Positions 2-8,676 of a stretch of 64,000 bases of DNA are shown piece after piece. The stretch's first letter is position 1; each line of letters begins with the position of its first letter. The notes under the pieces are model-generated. The model did not search any database, was not told where the DNA came from, and saw only the letters and a program-made list of their open reading frames with translations. The DNA is taken from positions 15,858-79,857 of the IMG/VR virus record IMGVR_UViG_3300034102_001457; one strand, written 5' to 3'. Position numbers and translations under genes: made by a program. The stretch comes from a virus.

Positions 2-160
2 GGAGCAATTACTGGCTTATTAGACCATGTTCATACTTACGACGGAAATGTTTTTTCTGTTTCGGAATCTACAGTTGCATCAACTGGAACCTTAGATGGA
101 GGAAATCCATTTTCAGAGTTTGGAAACTTACCAGGAAATCTTGATGCAGGTGAAGCGTAA
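2..160 (+). CDS. 3' end of a truncated virion/fibre-associated protein
   Basis: Open frame from the window edge ([15 protein letters not shown]...TLDGGNPF...LDAGEA*); stop TAA overlaps the ATG of the next gene (TAATG). Confidence 0.65.
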
Positions 161-1116
161 TGGCTATTGTACAAATAAGACGTGGCACTACATCTCAATG
201 GTCTCAATCTACTAAAATATTAAAAGTAGGCGAGCTTGGAATAGATACAACTCTTAATAGATTAAAAATTGGTAACGGTACAAGTCTTTGGAGTAACCTT
301 CCTTTTATTATAGGAGATAGAGGTGCAGATAGTACAGTTCCAGGTCCAAAGGGCGATACTGGAGATCAGGGCCCAGTTGGCCCAACAGGTGCAGCAAGTA
401 CTGTGCCTGGACCACAAGGTCCAGCAGGGCCGCAAGGGCCACAAGGACTAAAAGGCGATACAGGATTAACAGGACCAAAAGGCGATACAGGATTAACTGG
501 CGCAGCAGGTGCACAAGGAATTCAAGGTTTAACAGGTCCACAAGGTTTAAGAGGAGAAACAGGTTTAACAGGTGCAGCAGGTGCAGCAAGCACCGTACCT
601 GGGCCACAGGGTTTAAAGGGAGATACTGGTGACACAGGACCACAAGGTCCACAAGGATTAAAGGGCGATACTGGAGATCAGGGCCCAGCAGGCGCAGCAA
701 CTTTTAATGGACAAACAGATGTAACAAACGCTGGTCTTACAATTGATAAAATTGCTTATCCTGCAATTACTAGGTTAGATGTAACAAATAGTGGATCTTC
801 AGCATATCTATTTATGAATCAATATGGCGGAAGCAATCCAACAATATATGCAATTTCAGGTACAACCATAGCATTTAATTTAAATGTTTCTGGACACCCA
901 TTTTTGATTAGATTTTCTGGAGCAAATTACAACACAGGGCTGATTCACGTTTCAACAACAGGAGTCATATCTACTGGTACCGATGCTCAAGGCAAAACTA
1001 GCGGAACCCTATATTGGCAAATTCCTCAAGGTATAAACGGAAATTACGGATACCTTTGCTCGTTTCATAGTGGAATGACTGGTACCATAACTATTAAGGA
1101 TATAGCAACAATATGA
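160..1116 (+). CDS. Fibre protein: Mtd_N/HylP-like N-terminus, collagen-like G-X-Y region, C-terminal cupredoxin-like domain
   Basis: [11 protein letters not shown]...GELGIDTT...KIGNG...W..LP N-terminus; long GPQGPQG/GDTG repeats; GHPF...[11 protein letters not shown]. Confidence 0.8.
349..688 (+). repeat. Nucleotide repeats inside the collagen region
   Basis: AAGGGCGATACTGGAGATCAGGGCCCAG at 349 and 661; AAAGGCGATACAGGATTAAC at 451 and 478. Confidence 0.8.
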
Positions 1117-1343: not shown

Positions 1344-2816
1344 ATGGCATCTAGAATAAGAATAAGAAGAGGCACAACAACTCAATGGAACTCTTCTACC
1401 AAAATTTTGGAGTCTGGCGAACTTGGTATTGACACAACTTTAAACAAGGTAAAAGCAGGAAACGGAATTAATATCTGGTCAGCCTTGCCTTATCTAACAC
1501 CACCAGTTGCAGAAGTACAAGAAATGGCACAAGATGGAGTAGCCGCAGCTTTATCTGCTGGAACGCATTCAAATATAGTTGTATCTTACAGTGATGAGAA
1601 TAACAGCATAAGTCTTTCAACTGGTCCAGATGTAGTAACAACAACTAGTCTTTCAACAACTTTAACAGATTCAACAACTGGATATGTTCCATACGGAGAT
1701 ATTGGTCAGCCAGATGGAGTGGCTTCACTAGATTCAAGTGGTAAGATTCCAGACTCAGAAATTCCAGCCACTATTGCTAGAGATACAGAAATTCCATCAT
1801 CAACATCTTCTCTATCAGAAGGAACAAATCTTTATTTTACAGATGAGAGAGCACAAGATGCGGTAGGTAACAGCCTTGGATCTGGATTATCATACAATGA
1901 TACAACTGGTGCAATATCTGTAGATACTTCAATTATATCTACTAAGACATATGCTGAGACAACAGCTACTACAGCAGCTACTACAGTATTTAATAATATA
2001 TTGGATTCTGCTCCGACAGCTTTAAATACTTTAAATGAACTTGCAGCAGCAATAAATGATGATCAAAACTTTGCAACCACTATTACAACAGCATTAGGAA
2101 CAAAATTAAATACAGCAACGGCAGCTTCTGACTATTTAAAGATAACTGATGCTGCTTCTACATATTTATCACAAACAGCAGCTACAACAACCTACCTAGC
2201 TAAAACTCAGCCAGCTTTAGACTATCAGATTTTTAATAGTGGAACAGGTGGATACGTAGTAAATGGAACTATAAATGGACCAATTACTTTAATTCCTGGA
2301 AAGCCTGCCAGAATTTCTATACAAGCACCAGGACATCCGTTTTGGTTTCAAACTTCATATGGAGCATACAATCAAGCAAATGTTTATGAGACTGGTATAG
2401 CAGGATCTGGAACAGCTACTGGACAAATAGAAATTTTACTTCCACTAGATGCTCCACAGCTTTACTATGCATGTCAATTCCATGAGCCAATGAAGGGTGT
2501 TGTTTTATTTGAAAAAGATAGCAGCCTTCAAACATTTGCCGCCAAGACTGGGTCTTATACTGCAGTTTTAATGGATATGGGAAAGATTATTGAAATGTCA
2601 GGTGGCGGAACCTTTACAATAACAGATTCAACATCATTCCCAGTAGGAACAACATTTGAAGTTCTTCAAACTGGATCTTCTCAGGTAACAATAGCTGGAG
2701 ATGGTTTTACTATTAATGCTACACCAGGTTTAAAGCTCAGAACACAGTGGTCTGCCGCAACTATAATCAAAAGAGGCACGAATAGCTGGGTCGCTTTTGG
2801 AGACTTGGTAGCTTGA
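1344..2816 (+). CDS. Tail-fibre-like protein (Mtd_N-like N-terminus, fibre repeat, cupredoxin-like domain, C-terminal adaptor-like domain)
   Basis: IRIRRGTTTQW N-terminus paralogous to 160..1116; LDSAPTALNTLNELAAAINDDQNFATT fibre repeat; GHPF...YYACQFHEPM. Confidence 0.8.
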   Translation: MASRIRIRRGTTTQWNSSTKILESGELGIDTTLNKVKAGNGINIWSALPYLTPPVAEVQEMAQDGVAAALSAGTHSNIVVSYSDENNSISLSTGPDVVTTTSLSTTLTDSTTGYVPYGDIGQPDGVASLDSSGKIPDSEIPATIARDTEIPSSTSSLSEGTNLYFTDERAQDAVGNSLGSGLSYNDTTGAISVDTSIISTKTYAETTATTAATTVFNNILDSAPTALNTLNELAAAINDDQNFATTITTALGTKLNTATAASDYLKITDAASTYLSQTAATTTYLAKTQPALDYQIFNSGTGGYVVNGTINGPITLIPGKPARISIQAPGHPFWFQTSYGAYNQANVYETGIAGSGTATGQIEILLPLDAPQLYYACQFHEPMKGVVLFEKDSSLQTFAAKTGSYTAVLMDMGKIIEMSGGGTFTITDSTSFPVGTTFEVLQTGSSQVTIAGDGFTINATPGLKLRTQWSAATIIKRGTNSWVAFGDLVA

Positions 2817-2819
2817 TAA

Positions 2820-3902
2820 ATGTCAAGACTCAATAAAAAATTTTTTAGCCGATTAGGTATCAGAAAAGTAGATGTACCCAACCTATCTGGATTAAATAGA
2901 GACCAGGCAATAGCTGTATTAAATGCCGTTGGCTTAGTGCCAGTAGATACTCCAACAAATACAGAAAATATTAATTTAAATCTAGGAATTGTTTCTCAAT
3001 CGCAAGCTGCAGGATCTACGGTTTTAATTGGTTCACAAGTTTCTTTTAATTATTATAATTATGTAGCTCCACCAAACTTTAACCCAGGATTTAACCCAGG
3101 ATTCAACCCAGGATTTGCTAACCCAGGATTTAACCCAGGATTTGGTGTTGTTTGTGATTATGTTGATGCACCAACTTACTGTACTGGTGTAGACTCTCAA
3201 GGCTACGGAGATGCTTATCAGCGGTCATGGACAGCTGGATGTCCAGATGTTTATTTAGGAAGAAGTTTCTGTGGTGTTCCTAACCCAGGATTTAACCCAG
3301 GATTCAACGAACCAGCATTCAACGAACCAGCATTCAACGAACCAGCATTTGACACACCGCTCTTTGGAGGATCTGGAGATCTGACTAATCTTGATCTTAG
3401 CGCACTATTTAGTTTTGGTGGCAAAAGCGTTGGCATTACAACTTTAGTTAGAACTACCGATGGTCTTGTTAAAGCAGGAGATTTACGAGTCGGAGACACT
3501 CTTTTATCTGCAAATATTGAAGGATTCCCTTATGAAGGAGATGAAGGAATAACTGCTCAAGCGATTGCTTGGTCAGATAATAATCCTAGCATAATCCCAG
3601 AAGTTACAACTATAGCTAATATCTATAAAACACAATCTGCATATGCGGTTGTAATTAATGAAGATATATTTTCTCAATACCACTATATTTTAATTAAAAG
3701 AAATGGCGTATCTAAGTTTGAAACTTCAGTAAATATAGTTAAAGAAACTGATTTGGTTTATTCATATGACACTAGCAGCTGGGAGCCTATTTATCTTTAT
3801 GAAATAGTTCAGGCTCCACACGATATTATTTCTATCAACTGTGAGCCATACGATATGTTTTTTACAGAAAGGATGTTAACTCATGATTCAAGCGCAATAT
3901 AA
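2820..3902 (+). CDS. PASTA domain + Pro/Phe repeat + Hint (intein-like) domain protein
   Basis: VPNLSGLNRDQAIAVLNAVGL...VSQSQAAGSTV (PASTA); 7x NPGF and 3x NEPAF; SVGITTLVRTTDGLVKAGDLRVGDTLLS (Hint block A), FSQYH (block B), ISINCEPYDMFFTERMLTHD (blocks F/G). Confidence 0.8.
   Translation: MSRLNKKFFSRLGIRKVDVPNLSGLNRDQAIAVLNAVGLVPVDTPTNTENINLNLGIVSQSQAAGSTVLIGSQVSFNYYNYVAPPNFNPGFNPGFNPGFANPGFNPGFGVVCDYVDAPTYCTGVDSQGYGDAYQRSWTAGCPDVYLGRSFCGVPNPGFNPGFNEPAFNEPAFNEPAFDTPLFGGSGDLTNLDLSALFSFGGKSVGITTLVRTTDGLVKAGDLRVGDTLLSANIEGFPYEGDEGITAQAIAWSDNNPSIIPEVTTIANIYKTQSAYAVVINEDIFSQYHYILIKRNGVSKFETSVNIVKETDLVYSYDTSSWEPIYLYEIVQAPHDIISINCEPYDMFFTERMLTHDSSAI
3081..3143 (+). repeat. 12-bp tandem repeat encoding NPGF x5
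   Basis: AACCCAGGATTY units with one GCT insertion. Confidence 0.95.
3282..3350 (+). repeat. Tandem repeats encoding NPGF x2 and NEPAF x3
   Basis: AACCCAGGATTY x2, then AACGAACCAGCATTY x3. Confidence 0.95.
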
Positions 3903-4428
3903 TATTATAGAGATGAAAATGGTCGGAGAAAACCTTGTGCCCGTATTTTCTGCAATGCCTAATGAACTAAAGGGCTCCTGGATACATGTTACAAAATTAA
4001 ACCATTCATCTATAAAATATGTAAGCGCAATTTATTTTAATGATGTGCATCCCGAAAACACTGTCGTTATTTCAGATTATTTTCCTACAGAATACCCAGA
4101 CTTGTATTGCACCGTTAATAAAAATGGAAGAAATGAAAGAGTTTATGTAAATCCAAAATATAGAAAAATGGGGTTGCTGGGAGTTTCTGGATTAGTTGCT
4201 AGAGCAATATTTAATGATTATTTAAATATAATTATGGATGTGCCTTTAGATAGAAGCGAAAAAACTGAAAAAGCTACTAAATTAGTTAAAGATGTATGGC
4301 AAGAAAAAATAGAAAGCATTCCTCTAGAACAAAAATCATCAATATCAGTATTTGATATTGACCCGCCAAGAGATCCAGCTTATCCAGATGTTTGGCATGG
4401 CCACAGACCAGGAGGAAAAAATGGTTAA
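3883..4428 (+). CDS. GNAT-like acetyltransferase (putative)
   Basis: ERVYVNPKYRKMGLLG matches the GNAT acetyl-CoA-binding motif A (V.P.YR..G); start may be 3913 or 3919. Confidence 0.55.
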   Translation: MIQAQYNIIEMKMVGENLVPVFSAMPNELKGSWIHVTKLNHSSIKYVSAIYFNDVHPENTVVISDYFPTEYPDLYCTVNKNGRNERVYVNPKYRKMGLLGVSGLVARAIFNDYLNIIMDVPLDRSEKTEKATKLVKDVWQEKIESIPLEQKSSISVFDIDPPRDPAYPDVWHGHRPGGKNG

Positions 4429-4951
4429 TAAAATATTTTCAGAACAGGATATAAGTGTTTACAGTTTTTCATATATAAGAGACACAGAGCTTCAAGTTAT
4501 GCTTTCAAGCTTTGAAGAGATTTCATGGATAGAAAGAGTAAATGGTTTTAAAGAAGGAATAATTAAAACAACAAACTTTAAAAATTTAAATTTAGAAAAT
4601 AGGAGGCTATATATTAGCTATATTTCTGAAATAAATTCTTATCTTCATGACAGATCCCTTGCATTTGTTTATCCAATAGAGAATGTGTTTTTAAAAATAA
4701 TTCCAGAAACATCATACATGCAAGAGTTTTTAAACCCAGGACTAATAGATACCATATCAATTATTTATATAGTAAATAGCAATCACACGGGATCTAATAT
4801 TACATTCTTAAACAAAGATATTTCTATACCACTATCAAAAGGTAATTTAATAATTTTCCCATCTTCAGAAGAATATAGGTATAAGATTTCTGAAGTTTCT
4901 TCTGGAGAAATGATTGTTGGAGTTTCTTACGTAGAGGTTAAGAATGATTAA
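4421..4951 (+). CDS. 2OG-Fe(II) oxygenase-fold protein, apparently lacking the metal ligands
   Basis: GGAGG at 4411 before ATG 4421; ISIIYIVNSNHTGSNITF...KGNLIIFPSSEEYRYKISEVSSG parallels the P4H-like C-terminal strands, but no HxD and Y in place of the distal His. Confidence 0.6.
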   Translation: MVNKIFSEQDISVYSFSYIRDTELQVMLSSFEEISWIERVNGFKEGIIKTTNFKNLNLENRRLYISYISEINSYLHDRSLAFVYPIENVFLKIIPETSYMQEFLNPGLIDTISIIYIVNSNHTGSNITFLNKDISIPLSKGNLIIFPSSEEYRYKISEVSSGEMIVGVSYVEVKND

Positions 4952-5534
4952 TACAGAAAGTCAAAATAAAAACGAAAACGTTATATACAGAGAAAAAAGA
5001 AAAACAATCTCAGTTAAAGATAAATTTGATACACTGGGCCTATATGAAAAAATAATAAATGAATTAGATAAATCTGAAAAATTCTATGATTTCCCACATT
5101 CTAATGAAAAAGATATCAAGGTATACGATAAAAATAATTACAATCCATTTTTTATGCATGACGAACAAATGTATTTTCTTTTTCAAAAAGTATCTCTATT
5201 AATAAAAAATGCATGTGAAAAATATCAATTTAGCTACTTAAAAAATAAATATTTTATTTACTCTTCATTAATTGAAGACCAGGACCCGTCTTTATGGTAT
5301 GATGCTGGTGGTACATCAAGACCCTCAATGTTTGGAATAATTTCTCTAGACTCAGAAAAAACAAGATTACTAATTAATGAAGAAGAGTTTGAGATAGAGC
5401 CTGGAGAAATTATTGTTTCGGAAGCGGGCAATAAAATTGTTTATTCTAATAGATTTAAATCAATAGTGTTTTATGTAAGCCCATTATCAGAAATAAAAAA
5501 TCAGTATTCACAAAAGTGGATACCTTTAGTCTAA
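4944..5534 (+). CDS. Degenerate 2OG-Fe(II) oxygenase/cupin-fold protein
   Basis: LWYDAGG...MFGIISLD...IEPGEIIVSEAGN resembles a double-stranded beta-helix; context between two oxygenase-fold genes. Confidence 0.4.
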   Translation: MINTESQNKNENVIYREKRKTISVKDKFDTLGLYEKIINELDKSEKFYDFPHSNEKDIKVYDKNNYNPFFMHDEQMYFLFQKVSLLIKNACEKYQFSYLKNKYFIYSSLIEDQDPSLWYDAGGTSRPSMFGIISLDSEKTRLLINEEEFEIEPGEIIVSEAGNKIVYSNRFKSIVFYVSPLSEIKNQYSQKWIPLV

Positions 5535-5550
5535 AATAAAAGGAGATATT

Positions 5551-6201
5551 ATGATAATTGACACCCCAGCAATTGGAATAAAAATATATAGAAACGCTTT
5601 GCCAGAAGCAATGAACATTCCAGCAAGGCTAGAAAAGGTCTTAAGTTCAGGTAAAAGCTCAATGTTTAAGTGGTCGATTGCCACAGTTGGAGACCACGTA
5701 CAAAAATTAGATTACAGAGATTGTGTCGATTTTAAAATCAAAAGAGATTCTTTGAGGCCAGGGAATGAACTATCTGACGAAATAATATCTGTTCATGATC
5801 AAATAACAGAAAAGCTTCAAGAGTGTTTAAAGGATTACATGAGAGCATACAATACGAACACACTGCACTACATGGAAGCTATAAACTTTGTTCGTTATGG
5901 AGAAGGACAGCATTTTAAAACACACCCAGACAGCGGCCCAAGCTATTCATGCGACGTATCTACTGTTATGTATTTAAATAGCGACTATGAGGGTGGAGAG
6001 CTGTACTTCCCCCATTTTGACTATACCTATGTTCCTCAATATGGCGACATTGTGCTATTCCCATCTAGCTATCTTTTTTCACATGCCGCCTTACCAGTAA
6101 AGTCTGGAATAAAGTATTCTGCAGTAACTATGTTTTCATATAACGATAGAAACCATCAAGATCATGGTAGGTATCAGGGCCAGGTTTCTAAAGTTCTATA
6201 G
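5551..6201 (+). CDS. Prolyl-4-hydroxylase-like 2OG-Fe(II) oxygenase
   Basis: VRYGEGQHFKTHPD (HxD), VSTVMYLNSDYEGGELYF, GDIVLFPSSYLFSH (distal His), VKSGIKYS (2OG-binding Lys). Confidence 0.9.
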   Translation: MIIDTPAIGIKIYRNALPEAMNIPARLEKVLSSGKSSMFKWSIATVGDHVQKLDYRDCVDFKIKRDSLRPGNELSDEIISVHDQITEKLQECLKDYMRAYNTNTLHYMEAINFVRYGEGQHFKTHPDSGPSYSCDVSTVMYLNSDYEGGELYFPHFDYTYVPQYGDIVLFPSSYLFSHAALPVKSGIKYSAVTMFSYNDRNHQDHGRYQGQVSKVL

Positions 6202-6223
6202 ATAGGTAAAGAAACATTTAAGG

Positions 6224-6229
6224 TATAAT
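6224..6229 (+). promoter_or_regulatory. Putative -10 box
   Basis: GGTATAAT in the short intergenic gap before 6250. Confidence 0.55.
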
Positions 6230-6249
6230 TAGGGAAGAGGTGTAAGCAA

Positions 6250-8016
6250 ATGGCAACAAATTTCCCAGCGTCTTTAGACGTTCTAGTTAACCCACAGCCG
6301 AATGATTCGGTTGAGGAAGTTTCCCATTCCGCCCAACATGCAAATGCCAACGATGCAATTGAGGCATTGGAGTCTAAGGTCGGTGCCAATAACTCTACCG
6401 ACCCAAACTCTTTAGACTATAAGGTCAAAACACTTGAAACAAATATCCTAGATATTGAAGAGGTGGAAGATCTTGTCGGCGGCTTGCTTACCACTGGAAC
6501 CCATAACAATATTACAGTAGCATACGACGATGTTGCTAGAAAAATAAATTTAACTGCTACCTATGACGATGAAGAGGTCATGGATGCAATTGCTACTTCT
6601 TTGACAGCAGGCAACGGAATAACAAAAACTTATGATGATGTTGCAAACACAATAACTTTAGCGGTAGATACCTCAGTTATGGCAGATAAGACCTACGTAA
6701 ATACCGCAATATCAAACCTTGTAGATTCAGCACCAGGACTGCTAGACACTCTAAATGAAATTGCGGCAGCAATAGGAGACGATGCAAATTTTGCAACAAC
6801 AATAACATCCGCTCTAGCAACAAAGTTAAATATTACAACAGCAGCAAGCACATACCTTTCAATAGCTGATGCCCCAGAGACAATATCAGATACAACAGGA
6901 GCAATGTTTGCACATAATGGGCATACAAATGTAGTTGCAACTTATGATGATACAACTAATAGGGTAAACCTTTCAGTAATTGCTCAATTAACACAAGAAC
7001 AGGCTCAAGACTATATCGCTCCTCTTTTTGTACATAATTTAAATCCAAACATTACAGCAACCTATGATGATGAAGCAAACAAGCTAATACTAGAAACAAT
7101 AATCCCTCCGTCTAAAGCTATTATGTCAGCTTCTGCCCCATCATCTCCGTCAGACGGTCAATTCTGGCTGGACACTGATGAATTTAGAAGTGGCACAACT
7201 AGAGCCCTCAAAGTATGGAATGCTTTAACTTCAACTTGGGAATACATAAGCTCAGACCTATCTCTTTCTACTACAAATACCTGGACCTCAAAGAATACTT
7301 ATACAAACGGTATTATTATTGGTTTAGATGCCGCACCAACTACTCCAGTACACGGACAAATTTACTACAATAAAATTCTTAACAAGCTAAATGTTTGGGA
7401 CGGCTTATTGTGGAAGGAAGTATCTGGTTCTGGCGGTGGTGGAGGCGGACTCACATTAATTCCAACAGATGCTTCTGCACCAGCAAGTACATTTTTCGTA
7501 GGTCTTATCGAGCCACCAGCGGGAGCAACAACTCTAGGAGATTTGTGGATAGACGTTGATGATGATGCTGGCGCAACAGAATTTATTTATGCTGGACCAG
7601 AAGCCCCAGCAAATTATAATACAGATACTCTTTGGATTGACACAGATGAACCGATAACAGAATTAATATATAGTGCAAATGAGCCAGCAACCCCTTCTTA
7701 CACAGGAGAGCTTTGGATAGACTTAGATGATACTTCAGGACAGTCTATTGTCTCCTCTTTGACCCCTCCAACGCCTGCAGAAACAGATCTTTGGATAGAC
7801 CTAGCAAACGAAGAGGGATACTTAGAGTATAAAGATTTATTTAAAAATGGAGCAGCGTCAGTTCAAGCTTTTTCAAATTTGCCTACTGCTTCTCTTTATC
7901 CAGGGGCAATGATATACGTAGTTTCACAAAAAACAATATATGTATCTGTTGATAATCAATGGAAAAAGATGTACCCAAACTCAGATTCAGAAGTCCTGTC
8001 TTGGATAGGATTTTGA
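6250..8016 (+). CDS. Fibre/appendage structural protein with acidic LWIDxD repeats
   Basis: Repeated NIT(V/A)xYDD motifs shared with 1344..2816; DSAPGLLDTLNEIAAAIGDDANFATT; GQFWLDTD, DLWIDVDD, TLWIDTDE, ELWIDLDD, DLWIDLAN. Confidence 0.7.
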   Translation: MATNFPASLDVLVNPQPNDSVEEVSHSAQHANANDAIEALESKVGANNSTDPNSLDYKVKTLETNILDIEEVEDLVGGLLTTGTHNNITVAYDDVARKINLTATYDDEEVMDAIATSLTAGNGITKTYDDVANTITLAVDTSVMADKTYVNTAISNLVDSAPGLLDTLNEIAAAIGDDANFATTITSALATKLNITTAASTYLSIADAPETISDTTGAMFAHNGHTNVVATYDDTTNRVNLSVIAQLTQEQAQDYIAPLFVHNLNPNITATYDDEANKLILETIIPPSKAIMSASAPSSPSDGQFWLDTDEFRSGTTRALKVWNALTSTWEYISSDLSLSTTNTWTSKNTYTNGIIIGLDAAPTTPVHGQIYYNKILNKLNVWDGLLWKEVSGSGGGGGGLTLIPTDASAPASTFFVGLIEPPAGATTLGDLWIDVDDDAGATEFIYAGPEAPANYNTDTLWIDTDEPITELIYSANEPATPSYTGELWIDLDDTSGQSIVSSLTPPTPAETDLWIDLANEEGYLEYKDLFKNGAASVQAFSNLPTASLYPGAMIYVVSQKTIYVSVDNQWKKMYPNSDSEVLSWIGF

Positions 8017-8055: not shown

Positions 8056-8676
8056 ATGTCACTAAAGCGTTGGAATGGAACGGCCTGGGTTGTAGTAGCA
8101 GGATCACGACCAGGAGCACAAGGTCCTCAAGGTTTACCTGGACAAGCAGCAACAATATCTGTAGGCGCAGTAAACACATTACCTTCAGGATCAGCACCGA
8201 CTGTTACAAATAGCGGAACATCTTCAGCGGCAATATTAAATTTTAGTCTTCCTACTGGAACGCAGGGCCCAGCGGGTGCTGCAGGTGCAGCGGGACCTCA
8301 AGGAACAGCTGGACAAAGAGGTTCATATAATTTCACTGGAATTGCAGATCCAACAGCACAAAACCCAGCAAACAAATTAGGTTTAGATAATTATTTAAAT
8401 ACAACAACGGGCGATTGGTTCCAATATAATTCAACTACATCGACATGGACATTACAGGGAAATATTAGAGGCCCACAAGGACAGCAGGGATTAACTGGAG
8501 CAACAGGTGCAGTTGGACCTTCTGGTAATGAACTAGCTAATGATATACTTAAGGAAACAACGGTAGCTAGGGTAGATGCAATGCTAAACCTAGGTCTATA
8601 TTATCCAAAGTATACAAGTACTTTGACTCAAACAGAGTTGAACAGTAAATTTGCAGCAACAAGTTATTTATTTTAG
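8056..8676 (+). CDS. Collagen-like fibre protein
   Basis: Three G-X-Y segments; LKRWNGTAW N-terminus; YLNTTTGDWFQY...WTLQGNIRGPQG. Confidence 0.75.
   Translation: MSLKRWNGTAWVVVAGSRPGAQGPQGLPGQAATISVGAVNTLPSGSAPTVTNSGTSSAAILNFSLPTGTQGPAGAAGAAGPQGTAGQRGSYNFTGIADPTAQNPANKLGLDNYLNTTTGDWFQYNSTTSTWTLQGNIRGPQGQQGLTGATGAVGPSGNELANDILKETTVARVDAMLNLGLYYPKYTSTLTQTELNSKFAATSYLF

Follow-up and report, generated by a model that had tools for sequence, protein, structure and literature searches.

The protein encoded by ORF 2820–3902 of the window, by which we mean the whole 64,000-nt stretch of IMG/VR virus record IMGVR_UViG_3300034102_001457 analysed here, ends in a genuine Hint domain (residues 203–356). 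The domain belongs to a large, essentially phage-only family that puts Hint domains at the end of surface-type proteins, and comparison of its members places the window protein in one deep clade that combines a Ser/Asp active site, a Lys fixed beside the predicted scissile bond and a dedicated downstream gene for a GNAT-fold-like protein. We propose that the domain is probably a BIL-like autoprocessing cap that uses a Ser ester for its own removal, with the ester hydrolysed by default, and that it forms part of a portable cassette and is not a selfish intein.

The record behind the window, from a lake phage, is 79.9 kb long with an estimated completeness of 63%, and the window itself (38.8% G+C) carries structural and head genes (portal, head protease and HK97-type head genes), replication and recombination genes (DnaB helicase, primase and a UvsX-like recombinase) and several genes for 2OG-Fe(II) oxygenases. 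ORF 2820–3902 is flanked by fibre-like genes with Mtd_N and collagen repeats, and this position, combined with the annotation of relatives that are 25% identical, suggests that its product is carried in the virion. The parts of the protein are listed in Table 1. Its PASTA part, where the family profile also touches PknB PASTA structures, is followed by Pro-rich repeats on either side of a spacer with four Cys residues (C112, C121, C141 and C151), and from its sequence the PASTA/NPGF product is predicted to bind the cell wall. An earlier sequence-only reading of this DNA had described a ‘PASTA-repeat moiety’, which has to be corrected to a single PASTA domain with no repeat; the residues that it picked out at the other end of the protein (S203 after GGK, SQYH, H355-D356 and SSAI) were all exact on re-reading. 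The Hint domain and the four-residue tail together make up the last 158 residues of the ORF, and no Hog-type sterol-recognition region is present after the Hint module, which is followed by just these four residues.

Table 1. Parts of the Hint-capped protein and its downstream partner, in window coordinates
Feature	Position	Strand	Basis or remark
ORF, 360 aa: PASTA, Pro-rich repeats, Hint domain, 4-aa tail	2820..3902	+	translation; 44 near homologues
Single PASTA domain, residues 17-76	2868..3047	+	Pfam PF03793, E=6.3e-8, 32.9 bits against a cut-off of 23.2
Repeat region: five NPGF (88-108), 4-Cys spacer, two NPGF and three NEPAF (155-177)	3075..3350	+	translation
Linker with GGK at its end; K202 is -1 of the predicted scissile bond	3351..3425	+	K at -1 conserved in class
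Hint domain S203-D356, 154 aa	3426..3887	+	family profile, AF2 model, Foldseek, VIA-align
S203 codon	3426..3428	+	directly after GGK
Block B, S285-Q-Y-H288 (SQYH, residues 285-288)	3672..3683	+	
Block F, S338/E342/P343/D345		+	
Block G, T354-H355-D356 (codons of H355-D356)	3882..3887	+	
Tail S357-S-A-I	3888..3899	+	Ser at +1 and hydrophobic residue at +4 conserved in class
Stop codon	3900..3902	+	
Partner gene d1, 181 aa, GNAT-fold-like	3883..4428	+	downstream of Hint gene in clade; model; VIA-align

Single-sequence searches barely register the domain. With the C-terminal 158 residues of the window protein, Pfam gave no Hint match at E ≤ 1, the protein remaining under the gathering cut-off of the Hint-clan models (Hint, Hint_2, PT-HINT, Intein_splicing and Hom_end_hint) with none at E ≤ 1; the sole PHROGs match was a weak one to phrog_38766, ‘virion structural protein’ (E=0.019), and single-sequence phmmer against the PDB returned 2LWY alone, at E=0.5. 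A profile built from 52 family members matched the PDB far more strongly, with the Clostridium (C. thermocellum) BIL domain 2LWY as the best match (E=3e-8), followed by the gp41-1 intein (2.7e-7), the Aes123 PolB1 intein (2.9e-6) and the Pho RadA intein (7e-5). In the profile alignments S203 coincides with residue 1, H288 with the block-B (TxxH) His and D356 with the terminal Asn, and the block-G-like LTHD of the window protein lines up with LVHN of 2LWY and LTHN of gp41-1. An AlphaFold2 (AF2) model of residues 198–360 (pLDDT 94, pTM 0.89) gave Foldseek matches that were all inteins, BILs or hedgehog proteins, with probability 1.0. In VIA-align the closest chain was Tetrahymena BIL2 (Z 18.6, rmsd 1.7 Å, 137 residues), with the Ssp DnaB mini-intein at Z 17.9, 2LWY at 17.2 and hedgehog 1AT0 at 16.9, and more than 80 intein, BIL and hedgehog chains aligned with Z between 14 and 18.6; here too, model residue 6 (S203) falls on chain residue 1 and model residue 159 (D356) on the last residue. 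Because the profile matches, the AF2 model with Foldseek and the VIA-align superpositions are three independent lines, we take the Hint domain to be real, its identity being far above chance. The sequence-only reading had named structure prediction as the check on its proposal of a Hint fold, and the prediction delivered that fold (Foldseek 1.0, Z 17–18.6). The non-canonical features that it described, Ser1, an SxxH motif and a His-Asp end, align with the catalytic positions, and D345 stands where inteins have their block-F His.

The family reaches well beyond the window protein. A word-indexed search found 44 nearer relatives and an exhaustive HMMER search 121 clusters at 50% identity (73 at E ≤ 1e-10), with almost all members coming from uncultured phages. 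Three scans of IMG/VR confirmed 224, 223 and 69 loci, the first two sets overlapping; many of these loci are near-duplicates, and we give counts of distinct sequences alongside. Prokaryotic genomes (185,579 species, one genome each) yielded two short MAG contigs and no more. The whole window protein found no match among GenBank phages by blastn or tblastn, and other family members used as queries recovered relatives there that are 23–31% identical, mostly of the Cys/HN type and mostly in Erwinia and Dickeya jumbo phages, where their annotation reads virion structural, tail or tail fibre protein. Dickeya phage AD1 gp108, for example, has collagen repeats followed by G/C...HN (the slash marks a domain boundary) and a 10-aa tail. 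These caps belong to the same family as the window Hint and share its placement at the end of a structural protein, but they fall in a Cys1...His-Asn clade and lack a GNAT-like partner, whereas the window Hint is Ser1...Asp with Lys at -1. Cys1...HN members give sub-threshold matches to the Pfam Hint clan, and the family grades into such members.

Across the family the domain is almost always C-terminal, with a median of ~5 aa after it and 20–98 aa in a few members, and the cargo in front of it is diverse: among 83 proteins we counted fn3 in 29 and PASTA in 23, along with collagen, Calx-beta and varied Ig-like domains. The matches of the word-indexed and exhaustive searches included no Hint-less version that keeps the tail. 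With its terminal position and interchangeable N-terminal parts, the family has the hallmarks of a functional module at the end of surface-type proteins and lacks those of a mobile intein residing in a conserved host gene. The earlier suggestion that this is no selfish intein thus holds, the module being free of an endonuclease and attached to many unrelated N-terminal parts.

The sequence-only reading had called for an alignment of homologues at the terminal positions, and in 120 representative domains we observed conservation of the catalytic positions. Position 1 is Ser in 65, Cys in 26 and Ala in 1; block B reads [ST]xxH, with [ST] in 115/116 and His in 111/116; and the terminal residue is Asp in 73 and Asn in 41 (114/117 together). 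In block F, E342 is kept in 108/119 and D345 in 110/119, and P343 is nearly invariant as well. The +1 residue is variable across the family (Ser 42, Gly 12, Lys 12, Arg 9, then Leu, Val and others), and many Ser-group relatives have Phe, Tyr or Leu where the penultimate His would be. The two ends of the domain go together: Cys1 members have a His-Asn end in 25/26 representatives, and Ser1 members end in [HFYL]-Asp, with a few in Tyr/Trp-Asn and none of the representatives in His-Asn. A maximum-likelihood tree built without the position-1 and terminal columns gathers the Cys/HN members in one clade, with a single Ser/Cys switch and hence one independent pair, and two IMG/VR loci are Ser..HN. 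We tried the association of Ser1 with Asp and of Cys1 with Asn as proof of coupled termini and rejected it on these grounds; because the tree gives one independent event, the split is not counted as coupling and is best described, from the sequences, as a lineage trait. The Ser group itself has seen several changes of terminal residue, from Asp to Asn at least twice and also to Glu and Gly. The subgroup to which the window protein belongs, the S..HD/S class, is more uniform: Lys stands at -1 in 26/27 representatives, Ser at +1 is invariant (27 representatives, 70 loci), and an S-x-x-[IVM] tail is kept even without gene overlap. Some relatives have C-terminal parts of 20–98 aa after HD/S.

The ATG of the next gene overlaps the final 20 nt of the Hint ORF, that is, its last five sense codons and the stop. 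In the window's clade all 84 loci have this gene downstream of the Hint gene, against none of ~170 loci in other clades, as tallied over loci with at least 500 nt of downstream sequence, ‘absent’ meaning no match at E ≤ 0.01. The paired loci comprise 81 with Lys at -1, Ser1 and a terminal Asp (49 distinct Hint sequences; Ser at +1 in 70 and Gly in 11), all 81 of which have the partner, and three with Lys at -2 (K-[GN]/S...FD/N), all of which have it too. It was found in none of the 136 loci of other types from the first three scans (Cys..HN 59, other Ser..Asp 60, Ser..Asn 15 and Ser..Glu 2) and in none of 35 further Lys-less loci from the fourth. The partner as a trait of all Ser/Asp domains can be rejected, given the 60 Ser..Asp loci of other clades that lack it. 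The partner HMM match starts no more than ~30 nt from where the Hint ORF ends in most of the 84 loci; three loci have it ~600 nt away, with a 2OG oxygenase gene between. The pairing is kept down to a Hint identity of 39% and a partner identity of ~20–25%, and it persists despite full turnover of the cargo domains and of other neighbours. In the tree the paired members lie in one clade with weak support (79), and the sequences point to the Lys/partner link as a trait of one lineage and not of repeated events. For one member of another clade with Lys at -1 (P0065), a search of IMG/VR returned no close relatives. Because the pairing is so deeply conserved in the clade, a functional link between Hint domain and partner is a reasonable reading. 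The sequence-only reading did not mention this downstream gene, and its link to the Hint domain is the strongest new lead to come from the analysis.

We consider the partner to be GNAT-fold-like, an assignment of moderate strength. Pfam gave no match at E ≤ 1 and Foldseek weak ones (E ≥ 0.07); the model has a pLDDT of 86.7, and its top 50 VIA-align rows, from a search against representative structures, are all GNAT-fold, at Z of just 5.5–7.1 over ~100–114 residues, including the tRNA-dependent synthases 9wqx and 4v36. A protein-language-model atlas leads from the partner to viral GNAT clusters. Compared with GNAT motif A ([QR]-x-x-G-x-[GA]), the partner conserves a motif-A-like R-x-x-G (R94, G97), the last position being Gly/Ala in the YD/G-associated subgroup alone (RNKGIG) and Leu or Trp elsewhere. 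A C-terminal motif, PPRDPxYPxxW..R.GG, is conserved and predicted to be disordered. Enzymes of the GNAT fold acylate amines with thioesters or tRNA esters as donors, and the Fem and L/F-type transferases of this fold use aminoacyl-tRNA esters as donors.

Among described Hint types, the type-A BIL comes closest in fold and sequence. The window Hint shares with 2LWY the Hint fold and a block-G-like end, and its family, like type-A BILs, occurs without an endonuclease in variable, non-conserved, often surface-type proteins. It differs in having Ser1 in place of Cys1 and His-Asp in place of the defining His-Asn, in carrying Ser357 at +1, where BILs have no nucleophile, in its position at the extreme C-terminus, in the Asp at the block-F His position, and in being phage-encoded and paired with a GNAT-like gene. 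The alignment of LTHD to block G sets it apart from type B, which is defined by the lack of block-G similarity. Type-A BILs are expected to yield mainly cleavage products, although aminolysis can also join their flanks once C-terminal cleavage has occurred (PMC4031507). The closest structure, the Tetrahymena BUBL BIL2 (6Y75/6TMM), is ~18% identical and differs in its Cys1 and Asn, its ubiquitin-like cargo and its eukaryotic origin; it demonstrates transfer of N-terminal cargo from a Hint domain to the amine of a Lys (PMC8616854). The Hedgehog Hog/Hint domain (1AT0) is likewise C-terminal and frees extracellular N-terminal cargo via a (thio)ester and an outside nucleophile, but it has Cys1, a sterol-recognition region after the Hint module and no conserved terminal Asn/Asp. 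Class-1 mini-inteins with Ser1 and/or a C-terminal Asp/Gln have in common with the window Hint the Ser1, block-B His, penultimate His, cyclisable end and Ser at +1, and the spacing of blocks F and G matches that of the Ssp DnaB mini-intein. Unlike them, however, the window Hint has no conserved host protein, a C-extein of 4 aa, a block-F Asp for His and sister groups without a +1 nucleophile. Inteins are inserts in conserved hosts with intein-free alleles and end in His-Asn followed by Cys/Ser/Thr; here the domain is terminal on unrelated cargo and ends in His-Asp, followed by a Ser357 that is invariant in the class and replaced by Gly/Asn in sister groups. Peptidase_S74 chaperone domains of phage tailspikes and fibres are also self-cleaving, C-terminal and removed after folding, with a fold and chemistry unrelated to Hint; the likeness is a functional analogy alone, with no sequence or structure match seen. 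On our reading of these comparisons, the window Hint would work like a BIL or Hog domain, yet it lies outside every curated type.

N-terminal self-cleavage via a Ser ester is the most likely function of the domain, and, with BIL2 as a solved precedent, the most plausible chemistry would be one in which the N-terminal moiety is activated as an ester and then released or coupled. In the mechanism that we favour, S203 would attack the K202 carbonyl after folding (an N-to-O acyl shift) with Ser285 and His288 of block B assisting, so that the K202-S203 peptide bond becomes an ester; the ester would then be resolved, by default through hydrolysis, with loss of the 17-kDa Hint domain and a ~22-kDa PASTA/NPGF protein (residues 1–202) as the mature product. 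The flanking Lys, the Hint domain, the short tail and the GNAT-fold partner gene would together constitute a portable maturation cassette that phages attach to different surface-binding cargo domains. Cleavage, the fate of the ester and any role for the partner are matters that we infer. The terminal Asp, the penultimate His and Ser at +1 are conserved though unneeded for N-terminal cleavage, which suggests that the domain may perform more chemistry than this.

The K202 ester could instead be passed to an external amine or hydroxyl, on a virion protein, the host cell wall or a small molecule, in the manner of Hedgehog or BIL2 and possibly with help from the partner. We regard this as unlikely. 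It is in keeping with the adhesin-like cargo domains, with a GNAT-fold partner that is strictly co-conserved in the clade and has tRNA-dependent synthases among its structural matches, and with the best structural match of the Hint domain itself, BIL2, which makes ATP-independent isopeptide links to the side chains of Lys (PMC8616854); but the partner is missing from most of the family, other Ser/Asp clades included, and its GNAT assignment is itself of moderate strength. A further scheme, which we hold to be likewise unlikely, would make the Hint module and its obligate partner an ATP-independent two-component system. In one version the partner would acylate the freed Ser203 alpha-amine, thereby locking the unfavourable oxy-ester and committing the protein to cleavage; in the other it would use the Lys202-O-Ser ester as an acyl donor to couple the PASTA/fn3 cargo to a virion or host cell-wall amine.

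The domain could also be a working class-1-type intein situated four residues from the C-terminus, splicing to a 206-aa protein that ends in ...GGK-SSAI, and the canonical elements are all there, in the window protein and throughout its subclass: Ser1, the block-B His, His-Asp for His-Asn, and a +1 Ser that is invariant in the S..HD/S class. The tail kept without gene overlap and the longer C-terminal parts of some relatives would also suit splicing, and inteins with a C-terminal Asp are reported, in work by Amitai, Dassa and Pietrokovski from 2004, to splice. We nevertheless judge splicing distinctly unlikely, since the partner-bearing sister groups have Gly or Asn at +1 (YD/G, FD/N), which would bar canonical splicing there, there is neither a conserved host protein nor an intein-less allele, and D345 replaces the block-F His that assists cyclisation in inteins. 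Hint folds can also lose activity, and the loss of the penultimate His from many Ser-group relatives might indicate a catalytically dead fold, retained for a structural or receptor-binding role at the end of a protein that stays full length. This is very unlikely because the conservation pattern, with Ser/Cys in 91/92 and the block-B His and terminal Asp/Asn nearly as constant at identities down to ~25%, is typical of selection on an active site and not on a binding surface. A decaying selfish mini-intein that landed by chance near the end of the gene is scarcely credible: mini-inteins are common in phages, with gp41-1 and Aes123 PolB1 among the sequence matches, but the family runs to 121 clusters that share the (almost always) terminal placement on unrelated cargo, and the family is endonuclease-free, with its own shared insertion (W251-S252 region) and conserved flanks. 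We therefore retain the self-cleaving cap as the probable reading.

Hint domains are familiar from inteins, from Hedgehog and from a small number of bacterial BIL proteins, and it is still unclear what BILs do in nature. In our literature searches no account of Hint domains capping the C-termini of phage proteins turned up, and Pfam and PHROGs miss the whole family, so that such caps stand unannotated in phage genomes, those of the cultured Erwinia and Dickeya jumbo phages included. What is added here, on the strength of sequence comparison, is the definition of the Ser/Asp, Lys-flanked clade, its membership, together with the Cys/HN caps, of a single family, and the strict association with a GNAT-like gene. 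With two genes and ~540 codons, this is a compact natural system in which to ask what purpose a non-intein Hint domain has, and one that could show whether an accessory enzyme steers the fate of an ester intermediate; protein engineering, too, may gain from it self-cleaving or ligating tags that contain no cysteine.

In clades of the family other than that of the window, a protein-modifying enzyme is often encoded immediately 3′ of the Hint gene. Examples include a P4H-like 2OG-Fe(II) oxygenase (PF13640), a GT7 galactosyltransferase with a lectin domain, and a Skp1-type hydroxyproline GlcNAc-transferase (PF11397). Together with the Pro-rich linkers that precede the Hint domain in most family members, these neighbors suggest that the Hint-bearing phage proteins undergo hydroxyproline formation and glycosylation. 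In the window clade, the GNAT-fold-like partner protein encoded directly downstream of the Hint gene ends in a strongly conserved PPRDPxYPxxW..R.GG motif (residues about 161–181), which is predicted to be disordered and looks like a docking peptide. The Hint locus in the window is flanked by four fibre-like genes: two encode collagen triplet repeats, and the other two an Mtd_N domain (N-terminal domain of the major tropism determinant). One of the four, ORF 160-1116, also shows a weak match (E=0.2) to the terminal part of the plastocyanin/azurin family of copper-binding proteins.

Coordinates of genes and regions near family Hint genes
Feature	Locus	Position
Hint-adjacent enzyme	L022 (IMG/VR)	6506-7075
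Hint-adjacent enzyme	L176 (IMG/VR)	3410-4135
Hint-adjacent enzyme	L100 (IMG/VR)	5906-7312
Hint-adjacent enzyme	L084 (IMG/VR)	4456-5532
Region listed with the Hint-adjacent enzymes	window	4352-6201
Partner gene	window	3883-4428
Fibre-like gene	window	160-1116
Fibre-like gene	window	1344-2816
Fibre-like gene	window	6250-8016
Fibre-like gene	window	8056-8676
Short Hint-like ORF	L100, L103, L111-L113 (IMG/VR)	about 5233-5887
gp108	L234 (Dickeya phage AD1)	2002-3441

Directly 3′ of some very long (about 1600 aa) ORFs capped by a Cys1...His-Asn Hint domain, we observed a second, short ORF that partially matches the Hint profile and lacks the catalytic ends, which could be a degenerate or split Hint copy. 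Two metagenomic proteins have unusual domain layouts. P0074 (1108 aa) carries a tandem pair of family Hint domains (about 761–927 and 949–1101) C-terminal to fn3 domains, the second without the usual block-B residues. In P0160 (975 aa), the family Hint domain occupies the extreme N-terminus; its position 1 is Ala and it closes with His-Asn. The 812 aa that come after it contain Listeria-Bacteroides repeats, a reversed layout that suggests C-terminal cleavage only.

Among the matches found, the only isolate phages with family relatives are Dickeya and Erwinia jumbo phages. These cultured phages, of the Alexandravirus type, are represented by Dickeya phage vB_DsoM_AD1 (gp108, NC_048054.1) and by some 35 records from Erwinia jumbo phages. 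They encode a collagen-repeat protein with a terminal Cys1...His-Asn Hint domain and a 10-aa tail after it; the product is annotated ‘virion structural protein’, with the Hint domain itself unannotated. The cultured Dickeya and Erwinia phages offer a practical system for proteomic tests.
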